The notes under the pieces were generated by a model. The model saw nothing but the letters and a program-made list of their open reading frames with translations. It was not told the DNA's origin and made no database searches. A program made the position numbers and the translations under genes. Positions 15,382 through 49,866 of a stretch of DNA of 64,000 bases are shown here, piece by piece. How positions within the stretch are numbered: the first letter of the stretch is position 1; each line of letters opens with the position of its first letter. The DNA lies in the NCBI GenBank assembly GCA_016840405.1, contig JAEOSK010000001.1, positions 94,820 through 158,819 on the forward strand, in the 5' to 3' direction. This stretch comes from Candidatus Hermodarchaeum yapensis (GTDB lineage: Archaea; Asgardarchaeota; Hermodarchaeia; Hermodarchaeales; Hermodarchaeaceae).

Positions 15382-15915
15382 TTGATAAGATGTGGTTTTA
15401 TGGGGGAACCTGATAGGTCACCGAAAATTACTCAGAAGCAATCAATTATTTGCTGTCCAGTTTGTGGACAAGACTTGGTTGAACTTCCCTTAGAGCAAAT
15501 TGAAAAATGTCCGAACTGTGCATTCAACCTAGCTCTTGTTCAATCACCTCACGAATCTCCAACCAAACCTCCTATCCAGGTAGTTGTTCCTCGTTTTGCT
15601 TATCTGCTATTAGTAATTCAAGCAATTGTTGCAGCAATCATTGGGCTGTTGTTTCTTTTCTTTGCTAGTCCCTACTACTTTGGAATGCACTTAATATTTG
15701 CATTAATTCAGTTCCCTTCAGTTCTCATCATTGCACTTTTTCTAATTGTGCTTCGTTTCCCAAATATTGCCTTCATTGCAAGAATTGGTCTGATTATTTT
15801 CAGTATTGTCACTCTTCCTCTAGGTCTTTTTGCCTTCACTGCAGCTTTTTCCATCTCAGCTCCTCGACAACAACCCATAAAACAGCACAACAGTGGAGGG
15901 ACCAATGGTGGCTGA
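15382..15915 (+). CDS. Zinc-ribbon membrane protein
   Basis: CPVC...CPNC followed by 3-4 TM helices. Confidence 0.65.
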   Translation: MIRCGFMGEPDRSPKITQKQSIICCPVCGQDLVELPLEQIEKCPNCAFNLALVQSPHESPTKPPIQVVVPRFAYLLLVIQAIVAAIIGLLFLFFASPYYFGMHLIFALIQFPSVLIIALFLIVLRFPNIAFIARIGLIIFSIVTLPLGLFAFTAAFSISAPRQQPIKQHNSGGTNGG

Positions 15916-16738
15916 ACGAAGGTATCCCACTCGATTTTGTCCCTACTGTGCAACCGAAATAACGACGCCTACTAAATATTGTGTAACCTGCGGTGTAGAA
16001 ATTACATGGTCAATAAGAGAGGCGCAGGCCCCTCCATATCCCTGGTCACCCAGAACAACATATGTCATCACAATTATTACATATGGATTATTTTTCGTCC
16101 TGACATTCGCGCTACTTTTTTACTATCTTATCTTCTTTGGTATCCCACTCTATCTACTTGACACTATCTTAATCACAGATCCCTTCTTTACAATCATACT
16201 CACTTTAGGCGAAGTTACCTTCTTCCTGATTCCCTTTGCCATTGTAAAGAGATTGAAAGTCAGACGAGAGAAACTTGGCCTCTTTTCTGGGGGCATCAGG
16301 AACCTATCAAAAGATATTATATTGGGACTAGGCGTGGGCGTAGTTTTGGCTCCGCTAATCTTGCTCCTTGATCTGTATGAACTCCTTGCACCTGGAGCTG
16401 GTCCACCACCAACTCCCCCGACCCCCGTTGACCTGTTCTGGATGGGAATGCTGTGTCTTTCTGTGATTCTTATTATTGCACCCGCTGAAGAAGTGCTCTT
16501 TCGCGGGTTTATCCAAAACTCCCTAGATGCTCATTATGGTCGAATTGGAGGGCTCCTTGTATCCTCCATTATTTTCGGACTGGCTCATCTCAACCCGTTT
16601 ATTGGTGTCTTTCAAACAGTTGGAAGCATATTCCTCGGATTGCTATTCCAATGGCGAGGACGCCGTCTTGCCAGTCCAATTGTCGCTCATGCAACCTATG
16701 ATTGCTTGATAATAATCTTGGATGCCTTCCTTATCTAA
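15905..16738 (+). CDS. Zinc-ribbon + CPBP (Abi/CAAX, Rce1-like) intramembrane metalloprotease
   Basis: CPYC/CVTC ribbon; AEEVLFRG, FGLAH, HATYD motifs. Confidence 0.88.
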   Translation: MVAERRYPTRFCPYCATEITTPTKYCVTCGVEITWSIREAQAPPYPWSPRTTYVITIITYGLFFVLTFALLFYYLIFFGIPLYLLDTILITDPFFTIILTLGEVTFFLIPFAIVKRLKVRREKLGLFSGGIRNLSKDIILGLGVGVVLAPLILLLDLYELLAPGAGPPPTPPTPVDLFWMGMLCLSVILIIAPAEEVLFRGFIQNSLDAHYGRIGGLLVSSIIFGLAHLNPFIGVFQTVGSIFLGLLFQWRGRRLASPIVAHATYDCLIIILDAFLI

Positions 16739-16953
16739 ACCTCGAAAAGCTCCCGTTCGTCAGGCTGGGGACCACTCGCGGTGTTTAAATAAGTTTCTTG
16801 GCATCTAGATGTGAGGTCCTAGTCTGCGGTCCGAGAACCAAGGACATCTGACCGGGCAACATCGCCGGAACGGCGAGTAGAGCCTGTGGACCAGTCGGCA
16901 GGAGCCGATGGCATGAAGCAGGAAGCTCACACAATCAGATGTGGGCAGTTCAC
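16735..16953 (+). mobile_element. tnpB-less miniature IS200/IS605 element carrying an omega-RNA scaffold (family of the 44.3/46.2 kb elements)
   Basis: Left-end hairpin homologous to 44291-44330; TTTAAATA at 16784-16791; 3' part keeps GAGCCTGTGGA, GAAGCAGGAA and AGTTCAC with compensatory stem changes. Left boundary uncertain by ~8 nt. Confidence 0.85.
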
Positions 16954-16971
16954 CTAACGAAGACTCGTGCC

Positions 16972-19900
16972 TTAAAAAAGGGTGAGAAATGGGTTTCCAC
17001 ATAGACTGTAACTTAACCAGCTATGGAGAGGGGGACCTGTACTGGCTAGTTTTCGTCGTGTGTGGAGCATGGCAACAGCAATGGGATCCCCTCCATATAG
17101 CTGTCTAATCAGGTTTTGAGTAAAGGTGGGTTGTAACTTATGTTCTGGACGCCATCGTGTGAATACAATCGAGGGAGATCCAGCAGTGACGAGATGTCGT
17201 AGAAAACCAGCTAAACTCATTCCATTCTCCATGGGATCTATCCGCATCGAATCATCAAGCACAAGAATAGGTGCACCTTTGAATAGAGTTGTGACCCCGA
17301 TTTCAATCACTCGAAGACTATCCGGGTGTTGTAGTGGGATTTCGCCTTTACGATGGTGAAGGGTTGTGGGAGTTGAGAAAAAAAGAAGTGATCGGGGCTG
17401 CTCAAGGTTACTGGATAGCAAAGTCCGAGTAAAATCACTTCCAAAAAGAACAATTGGCTCAGTGATACCTTGGCGCGTGGGAACCGAGTCAAGAAATGAC
17501 TTGGCAATTGCTTCAGCCACTGCTCTACGCGAAGCCTGCTCTTCTGCACCTGAATAGACACCTAGTACAACTGAAGGCATTGTAGTCTGGGCTAATGCTT
17601 TAGTCTTTAACGTGCTTTCGAAAAATTGGAAATCCGGAGCCCATGCCATAGGATACTTGAGACCCCAGTATTCTTTTCCATCAAATACGAGTTCGAAGGG
17701 TACATTATTGAGAAATCCATCTGTGATGAATTGAAGAAATCCATAATTGTGGCTTTGGAGTTCCCGTTCAAGCCGACTCGGAATCAAACCGCGATATAGA
17801 AAGGATGCGATGTCTCTTAGATCCGCGATAGGAGGTAGTTCTTGAGTATTTTTGATTCCTTGGAGTGATTGTACAACTGAGGCTAAATCCGGTGAGATGG
17901 GTAAAGTATGGATACCGTGTCGACCGACATGGTCTAATGTAGTGACAATAATTCGTTGTTTTTCAAGTAGCACGTCATAGTTAATTAGAATCCACCGGCG
18001 GTCGGTAGGCATGAGGGTCATGAGTTTTTGTGGCATCTTATAATCTGAAGGCAACATCCCTCTTCCTGGGTCTGGACACGCTGCAGCGATTACGTTACGG
18101 TTGACATTCATTTTCTCCAATGATTCGACTAATTCAGTTCTAAGTGCCTTCCGACGGGATTTGTACTCTTCTTGGAGGAGACTTTTTGGAGGTAAATGTG
18201 CGAGTTGCTGTCGCAGACCGCTTATTTGTGTGAGAAGATTAGTTTCTTCTTGTAGTAATTTTGGTAAATCCACACAACGTTCATACCCGAGATTATCGGA
18301 TAGATAAGGATGCAATTTAGCGATTTTACGAGGGCTAGACCAATCAATCACCTTGTCTACAATCATTCGATCATTCTGTTTATGATAGTAATGTGTAGCA
18401 ATCAGGATTGCTTCTTCTAAGGCATGTTGCATTTGGTTCCACGCAAGAGGAAGATTTTCAATGTTGAAGTCAGTGGGAATATCAAGTTCTTCACCAATTG
18501 AAATTGCCTGCTCAATTAGCTTCAGGATGTCTGATATTCCAGCAGAATCAACCAGTAAATTCGCCTGTCGCAAAAGGGTTTGAAAATACTCTTCACGGTA
18601 TTCGGCTTCGCTGAAAATGCTTGCTGCCTTTTCATAATATTCCAAGGCTTTTGCTGAATCTTCTGCTTCAACTAAAGGCGCTAATTCAAAGTATAATCGA
18701 CCCTGAAATTTTTCCTCAGTGGATGGTTTAAGTGTCAAAAGAGAACCTTTGAGCGCATCTTTACGTAGGCTGGGTTTTTCGAGATTACGATAAGCCTCAG
18801 CCAATTGATAATATGCTTCACTTGTGTCAAAGCTGGGCTCAGCTTTAAACTCTTTAATCGCTTGACTTAGATACTGCGCAGCTTCCGTATACTCGGCATT
18901 TCGCATCAAAACCAATCCAAGATTAATCGCAGCCTCTGCACGAAGCTCCATTGGGAGTTGTTCATCATGAATGGCTTGTTCCAATATGCCTTTGACCTGC
19001 TCTGGTGCCTGAGCCTCTAAAGTTAGTTGTGTAAGACTGACCATCAGAGATGTGGCTAATAGAGTTCTTCCCTGAGCATTCGCTTCTTTTGCAGCTTTTT
19101 GTAAAAGCGGAAGGTCCTCTTCAAGTCGTTGGGTCCTTCGGGAAGCATTAAGCAATAAACGGTATCCCCGAATTTCCATCTTTTCTTCAGGATGATCTTT
19201 TAGCAACAAAAGAGCCATTTTGCTTTGTTCTATCGCTTCTGGATATCGTTCAAGTTGATAGAAGGTTTCACCTACTTCGATGTATATTTCTGCTTCTTCT
19301 TTCTGGCGTTTATGTTCTTGATAATAGCGAATAGCTTGTGTAAATTCCTGTTCCGATTGCTTATCTTTTCCAAGGCGTAGAAGTGCTTTTCCTTTCGAAA
19401 TGCGCGCGTGAATATTTCTAGCTTGTTCGCCTAATTGTGAGAATATCTCAATGGCTTTGTCAAATAGACGGAGTGCTCTCACATCCTGAACCAAGCGCTC
19501 TAAGATTTGAGCCACTATCAGTGCACTTTCTGCAAAGGCTATAGACGCTTTTTGGTTTTGGAAAAATTGGAGCGCTGCCTCGCCATGGGGGAGTGCCTGT
19601 TCTGGTTGATCTTTTTCCAATAAAAGACGTGCTGTGTGAAATTCGCATAAGGAGAGGCCTGTTTCATCATTGGCCTTTGAAAACACAGTTCGAGCTTGTT
19701 CGATGTGTTCTTCTGCCTTGTCCAGGTTTCCCTCAGCTTGGTAAATGCGTGCTACTCCAAGAAGTGCATGAGCCCTTGGTGTCGGTTTTCCTGCTGTTCC
19801 CCATAATTCGATTAGTTGTCTTAGGACCCTTTCTGCGTCATCGTACGCAGCAAGCTTGTGAAGGATACTAGCATATTCTGTAAGCGCTTTACCACGAAGT

Positions 19901-20391
19901 TCCACGTCATCTATTTGTTCAGTCATTTTGACTGCAGTGGCAAGATGCTCAGAGCCCTCCTGATATCTTCCAGATTTTGATAATAAACTGCCACTCTCAA
20001 TTAATAGTGATACTCGCGCTGATTTTTCTTCTCCTGGAATTTGGATTTCCAATGCTTGACTAAAAGCACGATTCGCCTCCTCATTGTAACCCAGCTGGTC
20101 CATTATTCTCCCCATTGTCAACAGGGCGGTCCGGAGGCTAGAGGGCTCTTTTACCCCTCGTAAGATTCGAATCGCTTGGGTGCTAGTGACAAGTGCTTCT
20201 TTATACTGTCCGAGGTTCACCAAAGCCTGAGTCATATAAATTGAGACAATACCCGCTTCACGTTTTTTCCCCTCCCGCTCGTATATCTCTAATGCCCGTT
20301 TCCATTCCTCTAAAGCCTTCTTAAAGGCTCTCTCCCTGTAATGGCTTTTACCCTTTGTAACTAATACATGTGCCTCGGATGAAGTCGACAC
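16972..20391 (-). CDS. TPR-repeat + CHAT-domain protein, predicted catalytically inactive
   Basis: ~650 aa of TPRs, a coiled coil, then CHAT motifs (ITDGFLNNVPFE, TAGSPSIVFTRW, WLSYSLCGNP); His and Cys catalytic positions not conserved. Confidence 0.85.
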   Translation of the reverse strand: MSTSSEAHVLVTKGKSHYRERAFKKALEEWKRALEIYEREGKKREAGIVSIYMTQALVNLGQYKEALVTSTQAIRILRGVKEPSSLRTALLTMGRIMDQLGYNEEANRAFSQALEIQIPGEEKSARVSLLIESGSLLSKSGRYQEGSEHLATAVKMTEQIDDVELRGKALTEYASILHKLAAYDDAERVLRQLIELWGTAGKPTPRAHALLGVARIYQAEGNLDKAEEHIEQARTVFSKANDETGLSLCEFHTARLLLEKDQPEQALPHGEAALQFFQNQKASIAFAESALIVAQILERLVQDVRALRLFDKAIEIFSQLGEQARNIHARISKGKALLRLGKDKQSEQEFTQAIRYYQEHKRQKEEAEIYIEVGETFYQLERYPEAIEQSKMALLLLKDHPEEKMEIRGYRLLLNASRRTQRLEEDLPLLQKAAKEANAQGRTLLATSLMVSLTQLTLEAQAPEQVKGILEQAIHDEQLPMELRAEAAINLGLVLMRNAEYTEAAQYLSQAIKEFKAEPSFDTSEAYYQLAEAYRNLEKPSLRKDALKGSLLTLKPSTEEKFQGRLYFELAPLVEAEDSAKALEYYEKAASIFSEAEYREEYFQTLLRQANLLVDSAGISDILKLIEQAISIGEELDIPTDFNIENLPLAWNQMQHALEEAILIATHYYHKQNDRMIVDKVIDWSSPRKIAKLHPYLSDNLGYERCVDLPKLLQEETNLLTQISGLRQQLAHLPPKSLLQEEYKSRRKALRTELVESLEKMNVNRNVIAAACPDPGRGMLPSDYKMPQKLMTLMPTDRRWILINYDVLLEKQRIIVTTLDHVGRHGIHTLPISPDLASVVQSLQGIKNTQELPPIADLRDIASFLYRGLIPSRLERELQSHNYGFLQFITDGFLNNVPFELVFDGKEYWGLKYPMAWAPDFQFFESTLKTKALAQTTMPSVVLGVYSGAEEQASRRAVAEAIAKSFLDSVPTRQGITEPIVLFGSDFTRTLLSSNLEQPRSLLFFSTPTTLHHRKGEIPLQHPDSLRVIEIGVTTLFKGAPILVLDDSMRIDPMENGMSLAGFLRHLVTAGSPSIVFTRWRPEHKLQPTFTQNLIRQLYGGDPIAVAMLHTRRKLASTGPPLHSWLSYSLCGNPFLTLF

Positions 20392-34987: not shown

Positions 34988-35360
34988 AAAGAATTGTGGT
35001 GAGAAAGTCCCCGATTTCAAGCGCGGGGATGAATCATGGAGTTTTTATAGATTTCCACCGAAAAACCATTGCGGTCAGCCGCTGACGGATCGTAATCCCC
35101 AGAACACCACGCTCCAAACCGCTCTCGGGGAGACCATCAGCAACATGGCATCCAGAATCAACGGGCACCAGACCCGTTCCCAACCGCATCCAACATCGAA
35201 CCCCTCATAGGGCTTGCACCAGTGATGACGGCGACCAAAGACGCGGTGACGCGTCTGCGGGCTCAGTTGTGAGGTGGAAGTCGGTAACGGGGTGGTGGCA
35301 CCCCCCGTGGAGGACCAAAGCCTCCACGAATCTCCCGACATCGGTCGTGGAGAGTGTCAA
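34988..35360 (+). mobile_element. tnpB-less miniature IS200/IS605 element (family of the element ending at 1060) with structured RNA interior and omega-RNA scaffold
   Basis: TTAC target at 34984-34987; AAAG guide at +17..+20 followed by the left hairpin; TATA 35042-35049; right end GAAT-hairpin-TCAA homologous to 971-1060. Confidence 0.88.
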
Positions 35361-44267: not shown

Positions 44268-45565
44268 TTTTATTAAAAAATTGGGAGATGATCCCGTCCT
44301 TCAAGGTGGGGAGGGAACGCGGAGTTCAAATACCCTATTGCCAACTTTAGAGATATGCTCAGAACCTTCCGGTATCGCCTCTACCCCAATCAAACGCAAC
44401 GTGCGCGAATCCGGAAGAACATCGACGCCTGTCGGTTCGTCTACAACTGGGCTCTGGAAATTACAAAGACTGCCTATGAGAAAGATGGGTCCAACCTGCG
44501 TTGGTTCGACTTGAACAACCGCCTTATCGAACTGAAGCAAGGCTACCCCTTTCTCAAAGATGCTTACTCCCAATCCCTACAACAAGCGGTTAAGCGGCTC
44601 AACCTAGCTTTCCAATATTTCATGCGCCACGTCTCGCAGGGTAAGGAACAGCCGGGCTATCCGAAGTTCAAGCGACGCAAGGCGCACCGACAGTCCTTTG
44701 ATGTTCCCCAGTTTTTCACCATCGACATTAACACTCAGCGCGTTTAGCTTCCAAAGATTGGAGCGGTTAAGGCAGTCTTCCATCGGCGGTTCTCTGGTAC
44801 ACCAAGAATGTGTACGGTTGTTTCGACCCTTACGGGTAAATTCTTCATCTCGATTGTAGTCGACGATGGAAATCCTCCTCCCCCTAAACCACAGGCGACG
44901 AACCAGACGTCGATCGGGATTGATGTGGGTCTGACGACCTATGTTACCATGTCCACCGGTGAAAAGGTAGAAAATCCTCGCCATCTACAAAACACACTGA
45001 AGCGTCTCCAGTGCCTGCATCGAAGGTTGAGCAAAAAAGTAAAGAGGAGTCGAAACCGGGAAAAAGCGAGACTGCGACTGGCCCGCTGTTACGAACGGGT
45101 TACCAATCAACGAGCTGATTTTCAGCAGAAGCTTTCGACGCGGTTGATTCGCGAGAACCAAGCGATTATAGTCGAGAGCCTTAACGTCAAGGGCTTGATG
45201 CGTAACCAGCGTCTGTCCAGGGCGATTGCCGATGTAGCTTGGTCGCGGTTTCTGGCGATGTTACGGTATAAGACCGAGTGGTATGGGGTAACGTTGATTG
45301 AGGTAGGGCAATTTGCACCCACGTCGAAGCGCTGTCATGCCTGTGGGTACCTCAATGAAGGGCTCACGTTATCGGACAGGGAGTGGACCTGTCCCTCCTG
45401 TCTTTTACCACTGGATCGGGATGTCAACGCCGCAAGAAATATTAAGATGATAGGACTTGGGTCCATCATTACACCGAGGGAACCTCGGGAAGAGCCTGTG
45501 GAGCTGTCAGCACTGGCTGAAGCGTCGAAGCAGGAAACTCCAACCATCAGGGCGGAGTAGTTCAC
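44268..45565 (+). mobile_element. IS200/IS605 (IS1341-like, tnpB-only) element, copy A
   Basis: Left hairpin CCCGTCCTTCAAGGTGGGG, tnpB, right end ending TTCAC at 45565; closely similar to copy B. Confidence 0.9.
44355..45560 (+). pseudogene. tnpB: TnpB with premature TAG at 44745-44747
   Basis: MLRTFRYRLYP N-terminus; GIDVGL, VESL, DRDVNAA intact; the TAG aligns with TGG in copy B. Confidence 0.92.
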
Positions 45566-45607
45566 TAACCACTCTTAATTGTCCTTGATCATCCTCAAGG
45601 CTCGGTG

Positions 45608-46144
45608 ATGACGGTGTCTGAAAAAGCATCCAAAACGAAAACGAAGACCACATCAAAAAAAGATGCTAGCAAGCCAAAGTCCAAATCTACCAGTAAACCA
45701 AAAGCAAAGGCAAAGGCGAAAACCACGAAAAAGCCTACGACGAAGAAGGCTCCGAAAAAGCCTACGACGAAGAAGGCTCCTAAAAAGACCACGCCGAAGA
45801 AACCTAAGAAAAGGCGCAAAACCAAAACCACCGTTGAGGCAAAACCAAAAAGAACACGTCCACGAAGGTTGCCATTGGAAACTCCAGTCAAAGGCGTTTT
45901 AATGAACTATCAACGAGGATCCGTTCGACAAAGAAACCAATACGGTTTGATCCAGCTTCAAGGTGTTTCTTCAATTTCTACAGCGGCCTCCTATATCGGT
46001 CGATCAGTCATACTCCATTTCAATGAACGAACCCAAAACCAAGGTCAAATCGTTTCAGTACATGGTAAGAAGGGCGTGCTCAGAGTGCGATTTCGCCGAA
46101 GGCTAGCCCCAGAAGCTTTGGCAAAAGAGGTTGTTGTCTTCTAA
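45608..46144 (+). CDS. rpl35ae: 50S ribosomal protein L35Ae (eL33) with long Lys/Thr/Pro-rich N-terminal extension
   Basis: KGVLMNYQRG, AASYIGR, GQIVSVHGKKGVLRVRF. Confidence 0.88.
   Translation: MTVSEKASKTKTKTTSKKDASKPKSKSTSKPKAKAKAKTTKKPTTKKAPKKPTTKKAPKKTTPKKPKKRRKTKTTVEAKPKRTRPRRLPLETPVKGVLMNYQRGSVRQRNQYGLIQLQGVSSISTAASYIGRSVILHFNERTQNQGQIVSVHGKKGVLRVRFRRRLAPEALAKEVVVF
45728..45781 (+). repeat. 27-bp tandem repeat x2 encoding KKPTTKKAP
   Basis: AAAAAGCCTACGACGAAGAAGGCTCC(G/T) occurs twice in tandem. Confidence 0.9.
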
Positions 46145-46222
46145 ATCAGGGAAGATCCCACCAAAACCCCTCTTTCTAACAATTATCTCATTATACAAGG
46201 CCAATTCAAGCTAGAATACTAC

Positions 46223-47514
46223 TTTTTGTTTTAAACTGCGAGAAGACCCCGTCCTTCAAGATGGGGAGAAATCGCGGACTTCAAATACCATAGTAAAGAA
46301 CCTATAGACATGCTCAGAACCTTCCGGTATCGCCTCTACCCCAATCAAGCACAACGTACGCGAATCCGGAAGAATATCGACGCCTGTCGGTTCGTCTACA
46401 ACTGAGCTTTGGAAATCACAAAGACTACCTTGGAGACAGATGGATTCAAACTAAGTTGGTTCGACCTGAACAACCGCCTTATCAAACTGAAACAGAATCA
46501 TCCCTTTCTCAAAGAGGCCTACTCCCAATCACTTCAACAGGCTGCTAAGCGGCTCCACCTGGCCTTCCAACATTTCTTTCAGTACCTCTCGCAGGGCAAG
46601 GAACAGCCAGGTTATCCGAAGTTTAAGTGACGTAAGGCACATCGGCAGTCATTTGACGTACCCCAGTTTTTTACTATCGATTTTGTCGCTCAACGCGTAT
46701 GGCTTCCTAAGATTGGTGCGGTTAAGGCAGTCTTCCATCGGCGGTTCTTTGGTTCGCCAAGAATGTGTACGGTTGTTTCAACCCTCATGGGTAAATTCTT
46801 CATCTCGATTGTAGTCGAGGATGGAAATTCTCCTCCACCGAAGGTTACGGACCAGAAGTCGGTGGGAATCGATGTGGGTCTGGCGACCTATATCACCTTG
46901 TCCACCGGTGAGAAAGTGGAGAACCCTCGACATCTCCAAAATGCACTGAAGCGCCTTCGATGTCTACATCGAAGGCTGAGTAAAAAAGAACGAGGTAGTC
47001 GGAATCGGGAAAAAGCACGGCAGCGACTAGCCAGCTGCTATGAACGGATCGGTAACCAACGGGCTGTTTTTCAGCATAAGCTCTCGATGAGATTGATTCG
47101 CGAGAACCAAGCGATCATGGTCGAGAGTCTTAACATCGGTGGCTTGATTCGTAACCGGCGTCTAGCTCAATTGATCGCCGATGCAGCCTGGTCTCAGTTT
47201 TTAGCGATGCTACGGTATAAAGCCAAGTGGTATGGAGTAACATTGATTGAAATAGGGCGGTTTGCACCTATGTCGAAGCGTTGTCATGGCTGTGGGCACC
47301 TCAATGAGAGACTCACCATGTCAGATCGAACTTGGACTTGTCCAGCCTGTCTTTTACCACTGGATCGGGATGTCAATGCCGCAATAAACATTAAGATGAT
47401 GGGACTTGGGTCCATCATTACACCGAGGGAACCTCGGGCAGGGCCTGTGGAGCTGTCAGCACTGGCTGAAGCGTCGAAGCAGGAAACTTCGCCAATCAGA
47501 GCGGAGTAGTTCAC
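46223..47514 (+). mobile_element. IS200/IS605 (IS1341-like, tnpB-only) element, copy B
   Basis: Same left hairpin and TTCAC right end as copy A; direct orientation. Confidence 0.9.
46310..47509 (+). pseudogene. tnpB: TnpB with premature TGA at 46403-46405 and 46628-46630
   Basis: Single frame throughout; the stops align with TGG and CGA in copy A; RuvC motifs intact. Confidence 0.92.
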
Positions 47515-48399: not shown

Positions 48400-49866
48400 T
48401 CTTAATAAAAGAATCCGAAAATATTGGGAGTATCTGATATCTTGTAGGGTAAGTGTATGTAAAGGTTACAAATGAGTGGCCTATACTAAGCGTTCATTCC
48501 CTACAACTACTTATCCCCCTCTCTCCCATTCCTTAAATTACATGTCTGTGAATTGCCTAGTATACACAGGCTATCATCACCACGCGGCTTAGGTCTCCAT
48601 TCAACACATAGGAGGATATTCCACGCACTTCACAGAACGCATCCAACTACGACCCTCTCCTTACCTTTCCCATCTCTGTCACCTAGCGAAGAATCTGTAT
48701 AACTTGGCAAATTATTACATCCGCCAAAAGTTCATCCGTGAAGGTAGCTGGATACGTTACCGGGAGATAGATGTTCTTTTTTAAACCACCCCGGTGTACA
48801 AGCGCCTTCCTGCGCAGACTGCTCAACAGGTACTTCGATTACTTGATCAGAACTGGAAGGCATATTTCACAGCCATCAAGGACTGGCGAAAAAATCCTAA
48901 CAAGTATCTGGGTCGTCCAAGAATACCACGATATAAACCGAAAAATGGTGAGATCCTCGCGATATTTACAAACCAGCAGTGCCGAATCAAAAGGGGCTTC
49001 TTGTGCTTTCCTAAAAAAACCAAGTTAACGCCAATCAAAACACGAATCACCGAACTGTTTCATCAGGTCCGTCTTATACCGCGGGGTAATCATTACATTC
49101 TAGAAATCGTTTATGAAAGGGAACCTATTACTCTCCGATTAAAGAGACGACGTGTCATTAGTGTTGATATTGGATTGAATAATCTCGTAACTGTTGTCAA
49201 CAACGCGGGGCTGGCTCCCTGGCGCGTGAAAGGCGGGGGTGTGAAATCCATCAATCAGTACTATAACAAGGAGAGGGGACGACTGTGTTCTTGTAGAGAC
49301 AAACAAGGCCTCACAGGTCAAACACATCGACTCCAGCGACTACGATTGAAAAGAACTAACAAAATTACCGATGTCTTTCACAAGGTGTCACGGCGCATCA
49401 TCAAATATTGCATTTCCAATAATTTCGGACGTATCGTGATTGGGTATAATAAGACGTGGAAACAACAAGTGACATTGGGTCGAAAAAACAACCAGAATTT
49501 CGTGAGTGTGCCATTTCTAAAGCTTGTGAAGAAAATCCAATACAAAGCAGCAATAGTGGGAATTGAGGTGATTATGGTGGACGAAGGACACACATCGAAG
49601 GTGAGTTTTATAGATGGAGAAGAAATCAAGCCTCATCAAACCTATGTGGGCAAACGTGTGGGACGGGGATTGTTCCGAACCTCGAAAGGACTCATCATTA
49701 ATGCGGATGTAAATGGCGGATATAATATCGGCCGAAAAGCAGTCCCGGAAGCCTTTATGGTGGACGGGATAGAGGGTGTGGGGTTACACCCATATTCGGT
49801 GACCGTTTGATGCAAATCGGTAACAGAATAAAATAAGAATGGTTGAAATTTACTACTCTCGATAAC
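48400..49866 (+). mobile_element. Approximate extent of the third tnpB element
   Basis: Upstream inverted repeats (TTGTAGGG/CCCTACAA; AATGAGTG/CGTTCATT); 3' hairpins overlap the tnpB end and finish near GATAAC; boundaries estimated. Confidence 0.5.
48623..49810 (+). pseudogene. tnpB: Third-family TnpB (no zinc finger) with mutated start (ACG) and premature TAA at 48782-48784
   Basis: GGAGG (48611-48615), then ACG CAC TTC ACA GAA...CHLAKNLYN in frame with ORF 48794; SVDIGLNN, IVIGYNK, DEGHTSK, NADVNGGYNI. Confidence 0.88.

Follow-up and report, generated by a model that had tools for sequence, protein, structure and literature searches.

A gene-less IS200/IS605-type miniature element with an omega-RNA gene in the Asgard archaeon Candidatus Hermodarchaeum yapensis

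Locus, boundaries and promoter of the element

The window analysed here is a 64,000-nt stretch of Candidatus Hermodarchaeum yapensis (assembly GCA_016840405.1, contig JAEOSK010000001.1, positions 94,820 to 158,819). It contains a 239-bp stretch between the stop codons of two convergent genes, an Rce1-like CAAX protease gene (15893-16738, + strand) and a TPR-CHAT gene (16972-20391, - strand), which holds a miniature element of 219 bp (16735-16953, hereafter the mini element). No protein-coding gene lies between the ends of this element, which is a non-autonomous derivative of the IS200/IS605 (IS1341-type) transposons, i.e., a palindrome-associated transposable element (PATE) or miniature inverted-repeat transposable element (MITE), and carries an omega-RNA gene. 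Its left end (16735-16810, + strand) starts with CTAAA. It includes a region with an imperfect hairpin as well as a TATA box, and its 5' leader reaches the point at which tnpB once had its start codon. The omega-RNA scaffold of 143 nt (16811-16953, + strand) scored 156.8 bits with the covariance model R1, which was built from the 15 copies of the element in this genome. The predicted guide (16954-16971, + strand) is flanking DNA which lies 3' of the conserved right-end terminus and extends to the TPR-CHAT stop codon; an initial annotation had likewise drawn the guide from the right-end flank, and we place its first nucleotide at 16954.

The genus was searched with the flanks of the element, which revealed an exact empty site (..CTTAT/CTAACGG.., the slash marking the insertion point) in the congener G002 and a filled site, orthologous to the window insertion, in the congener G005. 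The empty site set the bounds of the element and showed that it had inserted 3' of TTAT without target duplication, an insertion signature of the IS200/IS605 elements (PMC10055086). This TTAT (16731-16734, + strand) makes up the final bases of the Rce1-like protease gene, ahead of its TAA stop. A 4-nt ambiguity of the boundary (CTAA) was settled in favour of TTAT as the transposon-adjacent motif (TAM), because the right-end AGTTCAC is kept in all the mini copies and unrelated sequence follows it. The flanks of the host genome (G000) are slightly more similar to those of G002 than to those of G005, so the empty site of G002 may be the result of a scarless loss of the element; the margin is small.

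The archaeal TATA-box-like motif TTTAAATA lies on the + strand at 16784-16791, where the initial annotation had placed it, and the full-length tnpB elements carry TTCAAATA at the same place. By eye on the copy alignment, TTTAAATA is exact or has one change in 12 of the 15 mini copies, and the spacer after it is only 32% identical yet of constant length, about 20 nt. In the full-length copies the TTCAAATA box is found 22 nt upstream of the tnpB ATG, and this spacing suggests that the tnpB mRNA is leaderless. The same geometry in the mini element would put the start site near 16814, at the 5' boundary of the scaffold. Most mini copies show a left-end hairpin on inspection by eye, and no consensus fold of it was recovered among the 15 paralogues.

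Fold and conservation of the omega-RNA scaffold

The same six helices emerged from RNAalifold, from a structure refined by hand and from the covariance model; they are given here on the + strand. P1 pairs CCUAGUC (16818-24) with GACCGGG (16850-56) and bears an apical arm at 16829-45, whose helix P1b (16829-32/16842-45) is closed by the loop GAGAACCAA. P2 (16862-67/16871-76) has the loop GAAC, a long-range helix is formed between CCUGU (16883-87) and GCAGG (16918-22), P3 lies at 16891-99/16904-11, and P4 (16925-32/16939-46) is followed by the terminal AGUUCAC (16947-53). In the 15 mini copies, 89.6% of the alignment cells were paired, as compared to 26-46% with a slid partner, and 15 pairs had changed on both sides. 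When the alignment was fitted to the model and extended to 32 sequences (mini copies, the tnpB-linked A/B-type right ends described below and copies of relatives), 91.5% were paired and 27 of the 38 pairs had changed on both sides, so the omega-RNA gene with a covarying scaffold that had been proposed for this tnpB-less element is well founded. The right-end hairpin P4 is among the covarying helices. G-U pairs are frequent, one pair being U-G in 28 of the 32 sequences, and folding of the + strand is therefore favoured. A search of Rfam found no match in the window, and a relaxed threshold gave only a 13-bit chance match.

Comparison of the mini scaffolds with those of the A/B-type tnpB elements showed that every stem had been recoded, and the unpaired nucleotides (ACA.CG, GGAAC, AGAGCCUGUGGA, UGAAGCAGGAA and AGUUCAC) were largely kept. 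In the model alignment the three stem swaps named in the initial annotation are real. Its list of invariant loops and junctions stood in part: GGAAC and AGUUCAC are kept, the CCUGU and GCAGG segments turned out to pair with each other as a helix, and the loop ATCAG varies between copies. The AGAUGU../..ACAUCU hairpin, which had been read as a new structure in place of tnpB, is not conserved in the family; the region belongs to P1, an extended first omega-RNA stem whose homologue in the A/B scaffold is stem 1. The P1b arm is present in the other 14 copies as well as in the window (16829-16845), its loop GAGAACCAA is nearly invariant, and it is absent from all the tnpB-linked scaffolds seen. This conserved apical arm, which has no counterpart among the tnpB-linked scaffolds seen in the genus, is a modestly new feature. 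An alternative in which the P1b loop pairs with the 5' P1 strand was considered by eye on the copy alignment and rejected, as it is not conserved across the copies. In both local families the loop of P2 (GAAC) and the GUUC at the terminus do not vary, and the two may form a pseudoknot; the distant loci L142, L051 and L047 have compensatory-looking changes there, together with two broken pairs.

Among the 15 paralogues, mean pairwise identity was 74% in the scaffold, 76% in the TATA box, 53% from the start of the left end to the TATA box and 20% in the flank. Two orthologous pairs were available for comparison in place, namely the window site in G000 and G005 and the contig-60 copy in G000 and G002. 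In these pairs 19 of 284 scaffold positions had changed versus 19 of 152 in the left end (p about 0.05). The members of the contig-60 pair (G000 contig 60, 13607-13823, and G002:C104, L148) are 93-95% identical, and G002 shares this insertion with G000 and lacks the window insertion.

A multicopy family derived from full-length tnpB elements

The host assembly of 2.7 Mb is 86% complete. BLAST and R1 together identified 15 mini copies in it, all with the same architecture and internal junction, and eight A/B-type right ends that are attached to tnpB. The window locus is thus one of 15 ordinary transposon copies and not the dedicated trans-acting guide locus that the initial annotation had made of it. 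Most of the 15 mini copies, and the A/B full-length copies, directly follow TTTAT, YTTAT or TCTAT. The window copy has the second-best score among all copies and keeps every family-invariant position. In a sample of 151 genomes of the phylum, 34 mini-type scaffolds scored above 110 bits, and these were confined to 7 of the 15 genomes of the genus, including G000. No tblastn match to a tnpB-like coding sequence was obtained at any of the 15 mini copies of G000, and no tnpB was found within about 1.5 kb of flank around 20 mini copies in six congeners. The scaffold subtype therefore occurs only in gene-less form throughout the genus, which is modestly new. At least ten well-kept mini copies each are present in G000 and G010, and both genomes have intact A/B-type TnpB genes. 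In genomes without an intact TnpB of this type the mini copies are mostly few or decayed, with the exception of G012.

The two ends of the mini element are asymmetric and homologous to those of the full-length elements, two of which, the tnpB copies A and B, lie in the window. Copy A (44274-45565, + strand) is a pseudogene of the A type with an in-frame TAG at codon 131 and its scaffold at 45441-45565. Copy B (46232-47514, + strand, the left boundary being approximate) is likewise a pseudogene, interrupted by TGA stops at codons 32 and 107, and has its scaffold at 47390-47514. The right part of the mini element aligns with the last 125 nt of both copies, and the A/B right ends align end to end to the covariance model of the mini family at 81-96 bits, in agreement with the scaffold match noted at the outset. 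In an alignment with the eight A/B-type elements of the genome, the mini left end runs exactly to the position of the tnpB start codon and then jumps to the start of the scaffold. This shows that an ancestral tnpB element lost everything between the tnpB start codon and the omega-RNA start, and that the remainder, a promoter-bearing left end fused to a complete right-end omega-RNA scaffold, then spread as a unit. The A/B elements and the mini family have a TTTAT-type adjacent motif and the AGTTCAC terminus in common, and therefore they would not be expected to differ in transposase specificity or in TAM. Deletion of a local full-length copy in situ was rejected as the origin of the window copy, because many dispersed copies share one junction. 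A full-length parent with the mini-type scaffold was found neither in the genome itself, nor at the 20 loci of the six congeners, nor among the 151 sampled genomes of the phylum. A tnpB-linked scaffold of G004, which looked long enough to be such a parent, proved to be of the A/B type and was rejected.

Guides, possible partners and interpretation

All 15 guides match the flank of their own copy and nothing else, and the guide of the window copy is unique in the genome. None of them has a second genomic match beside a TTAT-type motif; the best remaining matches span 14-19 nt, contain mismatches and lack an upstream TTAT. For the window copy, TAM plus guide reads TTAT + CTAACGAAGACTCGTG, and this is the empty site as it is present in G002. 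The homing and retention model predicts that guide and TAM together make up the empty donor site (PMC10055086), and guides of this kind fit homing and retention. Of the two roles that the initial annotation had offered for the guide, protection of its own site agrees with this result, and action on another target found no counterpart in the host genome. A regulatory guide of the TldR type is not indicated either: the guides match no distinct host target, and the candidate partner has its catalytic residues.

That partner would have to be encoded elsewhere, as was already assumed in the initial annotation, and one clearly intact related TnpB is indeed encoded on contig 59 (L026:1035-2237, - strand, 401 aa). 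This protein contains the Pfam domains HTH_OrfB_IS605, OrfB_IS605 and TNB, aligns over its length with the TnpB of ISDra2 (E 2e-67) and has the D/E/D motifs. It appears to be the best candidate partner of the mini omega-RNA because the A/B family and the mini family have in common their TAM, their right-end terminus and the unpaired nucleotides that are invariant. Besides the pseudogenes of the window, the other tnpB copies of the A/B type comprise one on contig 36 and the second one on contig 40, both with in-frame stops, the first one on contig 40 with a frameshift, that of the second element on contig 14 with an internal deletion, and one on contig 67 which has an open frame with ATA as its start codon.

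We consider it probable, with some reserve, that the mini element is a non-autonomous omega-RNA unit which has spread and whose RNA is loaded in trans by a related TnpB of the A/B family, and that this loading aids its retention. Transcription from TTTAAATA would start at about 16814 and run into the flank, yielding scaffold plus guide. The RNA would be loaded in trans by an A/B-family TnpB, most plausibly the product of the contig-59 gene. A Y1 transposase would excise the element and leave a scarless empty site, TTAT + CTAACGAAG..., which the TnpB-RNA complex would cut, and recombination with an occupied chromosome copy would restore the element. The element would be, in other words, a hyperparasite of both TnpA and TnpB.

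Several observations weigh against this interpretation. The 86%-complete assembly of G000 yielded no Y1 TnpA, no serine recombinase and no Cas1, and Y1 TnpA occurs in only 1 of the 19 genomes of the family, although its absence from an incomplete metagenome-assembled genome is not proof. The mini scaffold shares only about 70% identity with that of the contig-59 TnpB's own element and bears the extra arm, so that cross-loading onto this TnpB is assumed. The comparison of the orthologous pairs gives weak support to selection on the scaffold in place, the G005 orthologue has changes at four family-invariant positions, decayed mini copies are present in G004, G007, G012 and G014, and G012 has three well-kept mini copies and no A/B-type TnpB. 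The lack of a transposase of known type in the assembly, the decayed copies, the lost invariant positions of the G005 orthologue and the G012 copies also speak for an inert relic, i.e., a PATE or MITE that once spread by means of borrowed TnpA and TnpB and would now be a neutral fossil, its structure reflecting past selection on the source lineage. To these may be added the state of the A/B-type tnpB genes, of which only one is clearly intact, six of the eight being broken and one lacking an ATG. On the other hand, the high score and the unchanged invariant positions of the window copy speak against a fossil, as do the somewhat smaller change of the scaffold relative to the left end in the orthologous pairs and the presence of an intact candidate TnpB; moreover, the assembly is 86% complete, and repeats often fail to assemble. 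We hold the relic to be the less likely explanation, with a real chance of being right.

The folded right end could also act only as DNA, providing single-stranded hairpins for a Y1 transposase without any functional RNA. The IS200/IS605 transposases do recognise subterminal hairpins in single-stranded DNA (PMC10055086), and P4, beside the cleavage site, is such a hairpin. Short subterminal hairpins are sufficient for TnpA, however, whereas the covariation here extends over 143 nt and six helices, of which one is long-range. The frequent G-U pairs, including the one that is nearly always U-G, do not suit a signal in DNA, nor does the conservation of a TATA box and of its spacing to the scaffold in copies which have no gene to express, and the same region is the place where the TnpB omega-RNAs are encoded in the full-length relatives. 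This makes a signal at the DNA level improbable. Still more improbable, to a degree that we give it very little weight, is a domesticated guide that acts in trans, with the RNA steering TnpB or a dead derivative to a different site, genomic or viral, in the service of regulation or defence. It has been proposed that stand-alone omega-RNAs allow additional sites to be targeted (PMC10691335), and TnpB-derived repressors exist (10.64898/2026.09.22.753285), but the guides match nothing in the genome except their own flanks, each guide is whatever DNA adjoins the insertion, and the catalytic residues are kept in the candidate TnpB.

The reading as a mobile omega-RNA unit that depends on TnpB in trans can be carried one step further. 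The mini family might be a long-lived, genus-wide lineage consisting of the guide RNA only, which has its own scaffold variant, with recoded stems and the arm with the GAGAACCAA loop, and exploits the TnpB of a family from which it has diverged. We put this forward tentatively and find it rather doubtful. If true, it would be a natural case of cross-family omega-RNA loading and of a hyperparasite that persists by RNA function alone.

The dependence of such elements on TnpB in trans is not new. PATEs of IS200/IS605 were named in 2011 in Haloquadratum (PMC3119063). Meers et al. described PATE-like elements in Geobacillus stearothermophilus and reported that PATEs often encode omega-RNAs which need TnpB in trans (PMC10055086). 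Stand-alone mobilised omega-RNAs of OMEGA systems were reported by Altae-Tran et al. (2021), according to the summary in PMC10691335, and were shown experimentally to work in trans with compatible effectors. Stand-alone omega-RNAs and PATEs that rely on effectors in trans are thus already published (PMC10055086; PMC10691335), and the initial annotation overrated the novelty of the locus. The mini element resembles the PATEs in being gene-less and multicopy, with IS200/IS605-type ends, insertion next to a TAM without duplication and an omega-RNA in its right end. It differs from those described in that its host is an Asgard archaeon, in that its scaffold subtype is gene-less in all 34 copies of the genus, about 70% identical to the tnpB-linked scaffold and equipped with an added apical arm, and in that it keeps an archaeal TATA box which appears to be placed so as to start transcription at the scaffold edge. 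Like the stand-alone omega-RNAs of OMEGA, it has neither effector nor transposase and shares a genome with effector-bearing loci; those RNAs were active in trans in experiments, whereas the mini element is known from sequence. As in the omega-RNAs of ISDra2/IS1341-type TnpB (structures 8exa and 8h1j), the predicted RNA extends to the right-end boundary and takes its guide from the flank. Its scaffold resembles theirs in having several helices and perhaps also in a pseudoknot that would join a hairpin loop to the terminus. Unlike ISDra2, it has no tnpB in cis, and its 5' end is probably set by the promoter and not by processing of a tnpB mRNA.

The locus is a clear natural example, found in an Asgard archaeon, for which the empty site is known exactly, a filled site exists at the orthologous position and the family has 34 members. 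It indicates that an omega-RNA gene can by itself persist and spread as a mobile element, in line with the published view of TnpA, TnpB and the guide RNA as separable modules. The comparison of the mini scaffold with the tnpB-linked scaffolds, in which the stems are recoded and the unpaired nucleotides are kept, provides a map of nucleotides that may be needed for recognition by TnpB. Such a map could aid the design of minimal guide scaffolds, and it opens no new class of system.

Other transposon-related features were observed in the genome and its relatives. The sole Y1 TnpA among the 19 family genomes is encoded at L142 (G013:C208:1-2307), in an IS605 with divergent tnpA (400-933, - strand) and tnpB (873-2012, + strand). 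This element has a TTTAT-like motif and a GTAGTTGAC end, its right end finishes with GGTAGTTGAC, and an internal hairpin has the loop GUCAAC, which is complementary to the right end. Unrelated TnpB families at about 17145-17295 of contig 40 and about 14200-14296 of contig 9 in G000 also have right ends in (G/T)AGTTCAC, and because of this a single transposase cleavage motif common to several IS families is suggested. A third, shorter TnpB family is represented in the window at 48794-49810 by an open frame of 338 aa, whose product has the OrfB_IS605 and TNB domains and gave no HTH match at its N terminus, and it has copies on contigs 1, 40 and 60 at 71-74% identity. A 38-nt repeat with 84% identity, ending in ..GTGGAGAGTGTCAA, occurs at 1023-1060 and 35323-35360 of the window, where another IS family probably has its right ends. 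The tandem A/B pseudogenes (44274-47514), which carry point nonsense mutations, flank a gene at 45605-46144 whose product has a long lysine-rich N-terminal stretch, followed by a C-terminal part which we take to resemble ribosomal protein L35Ae.

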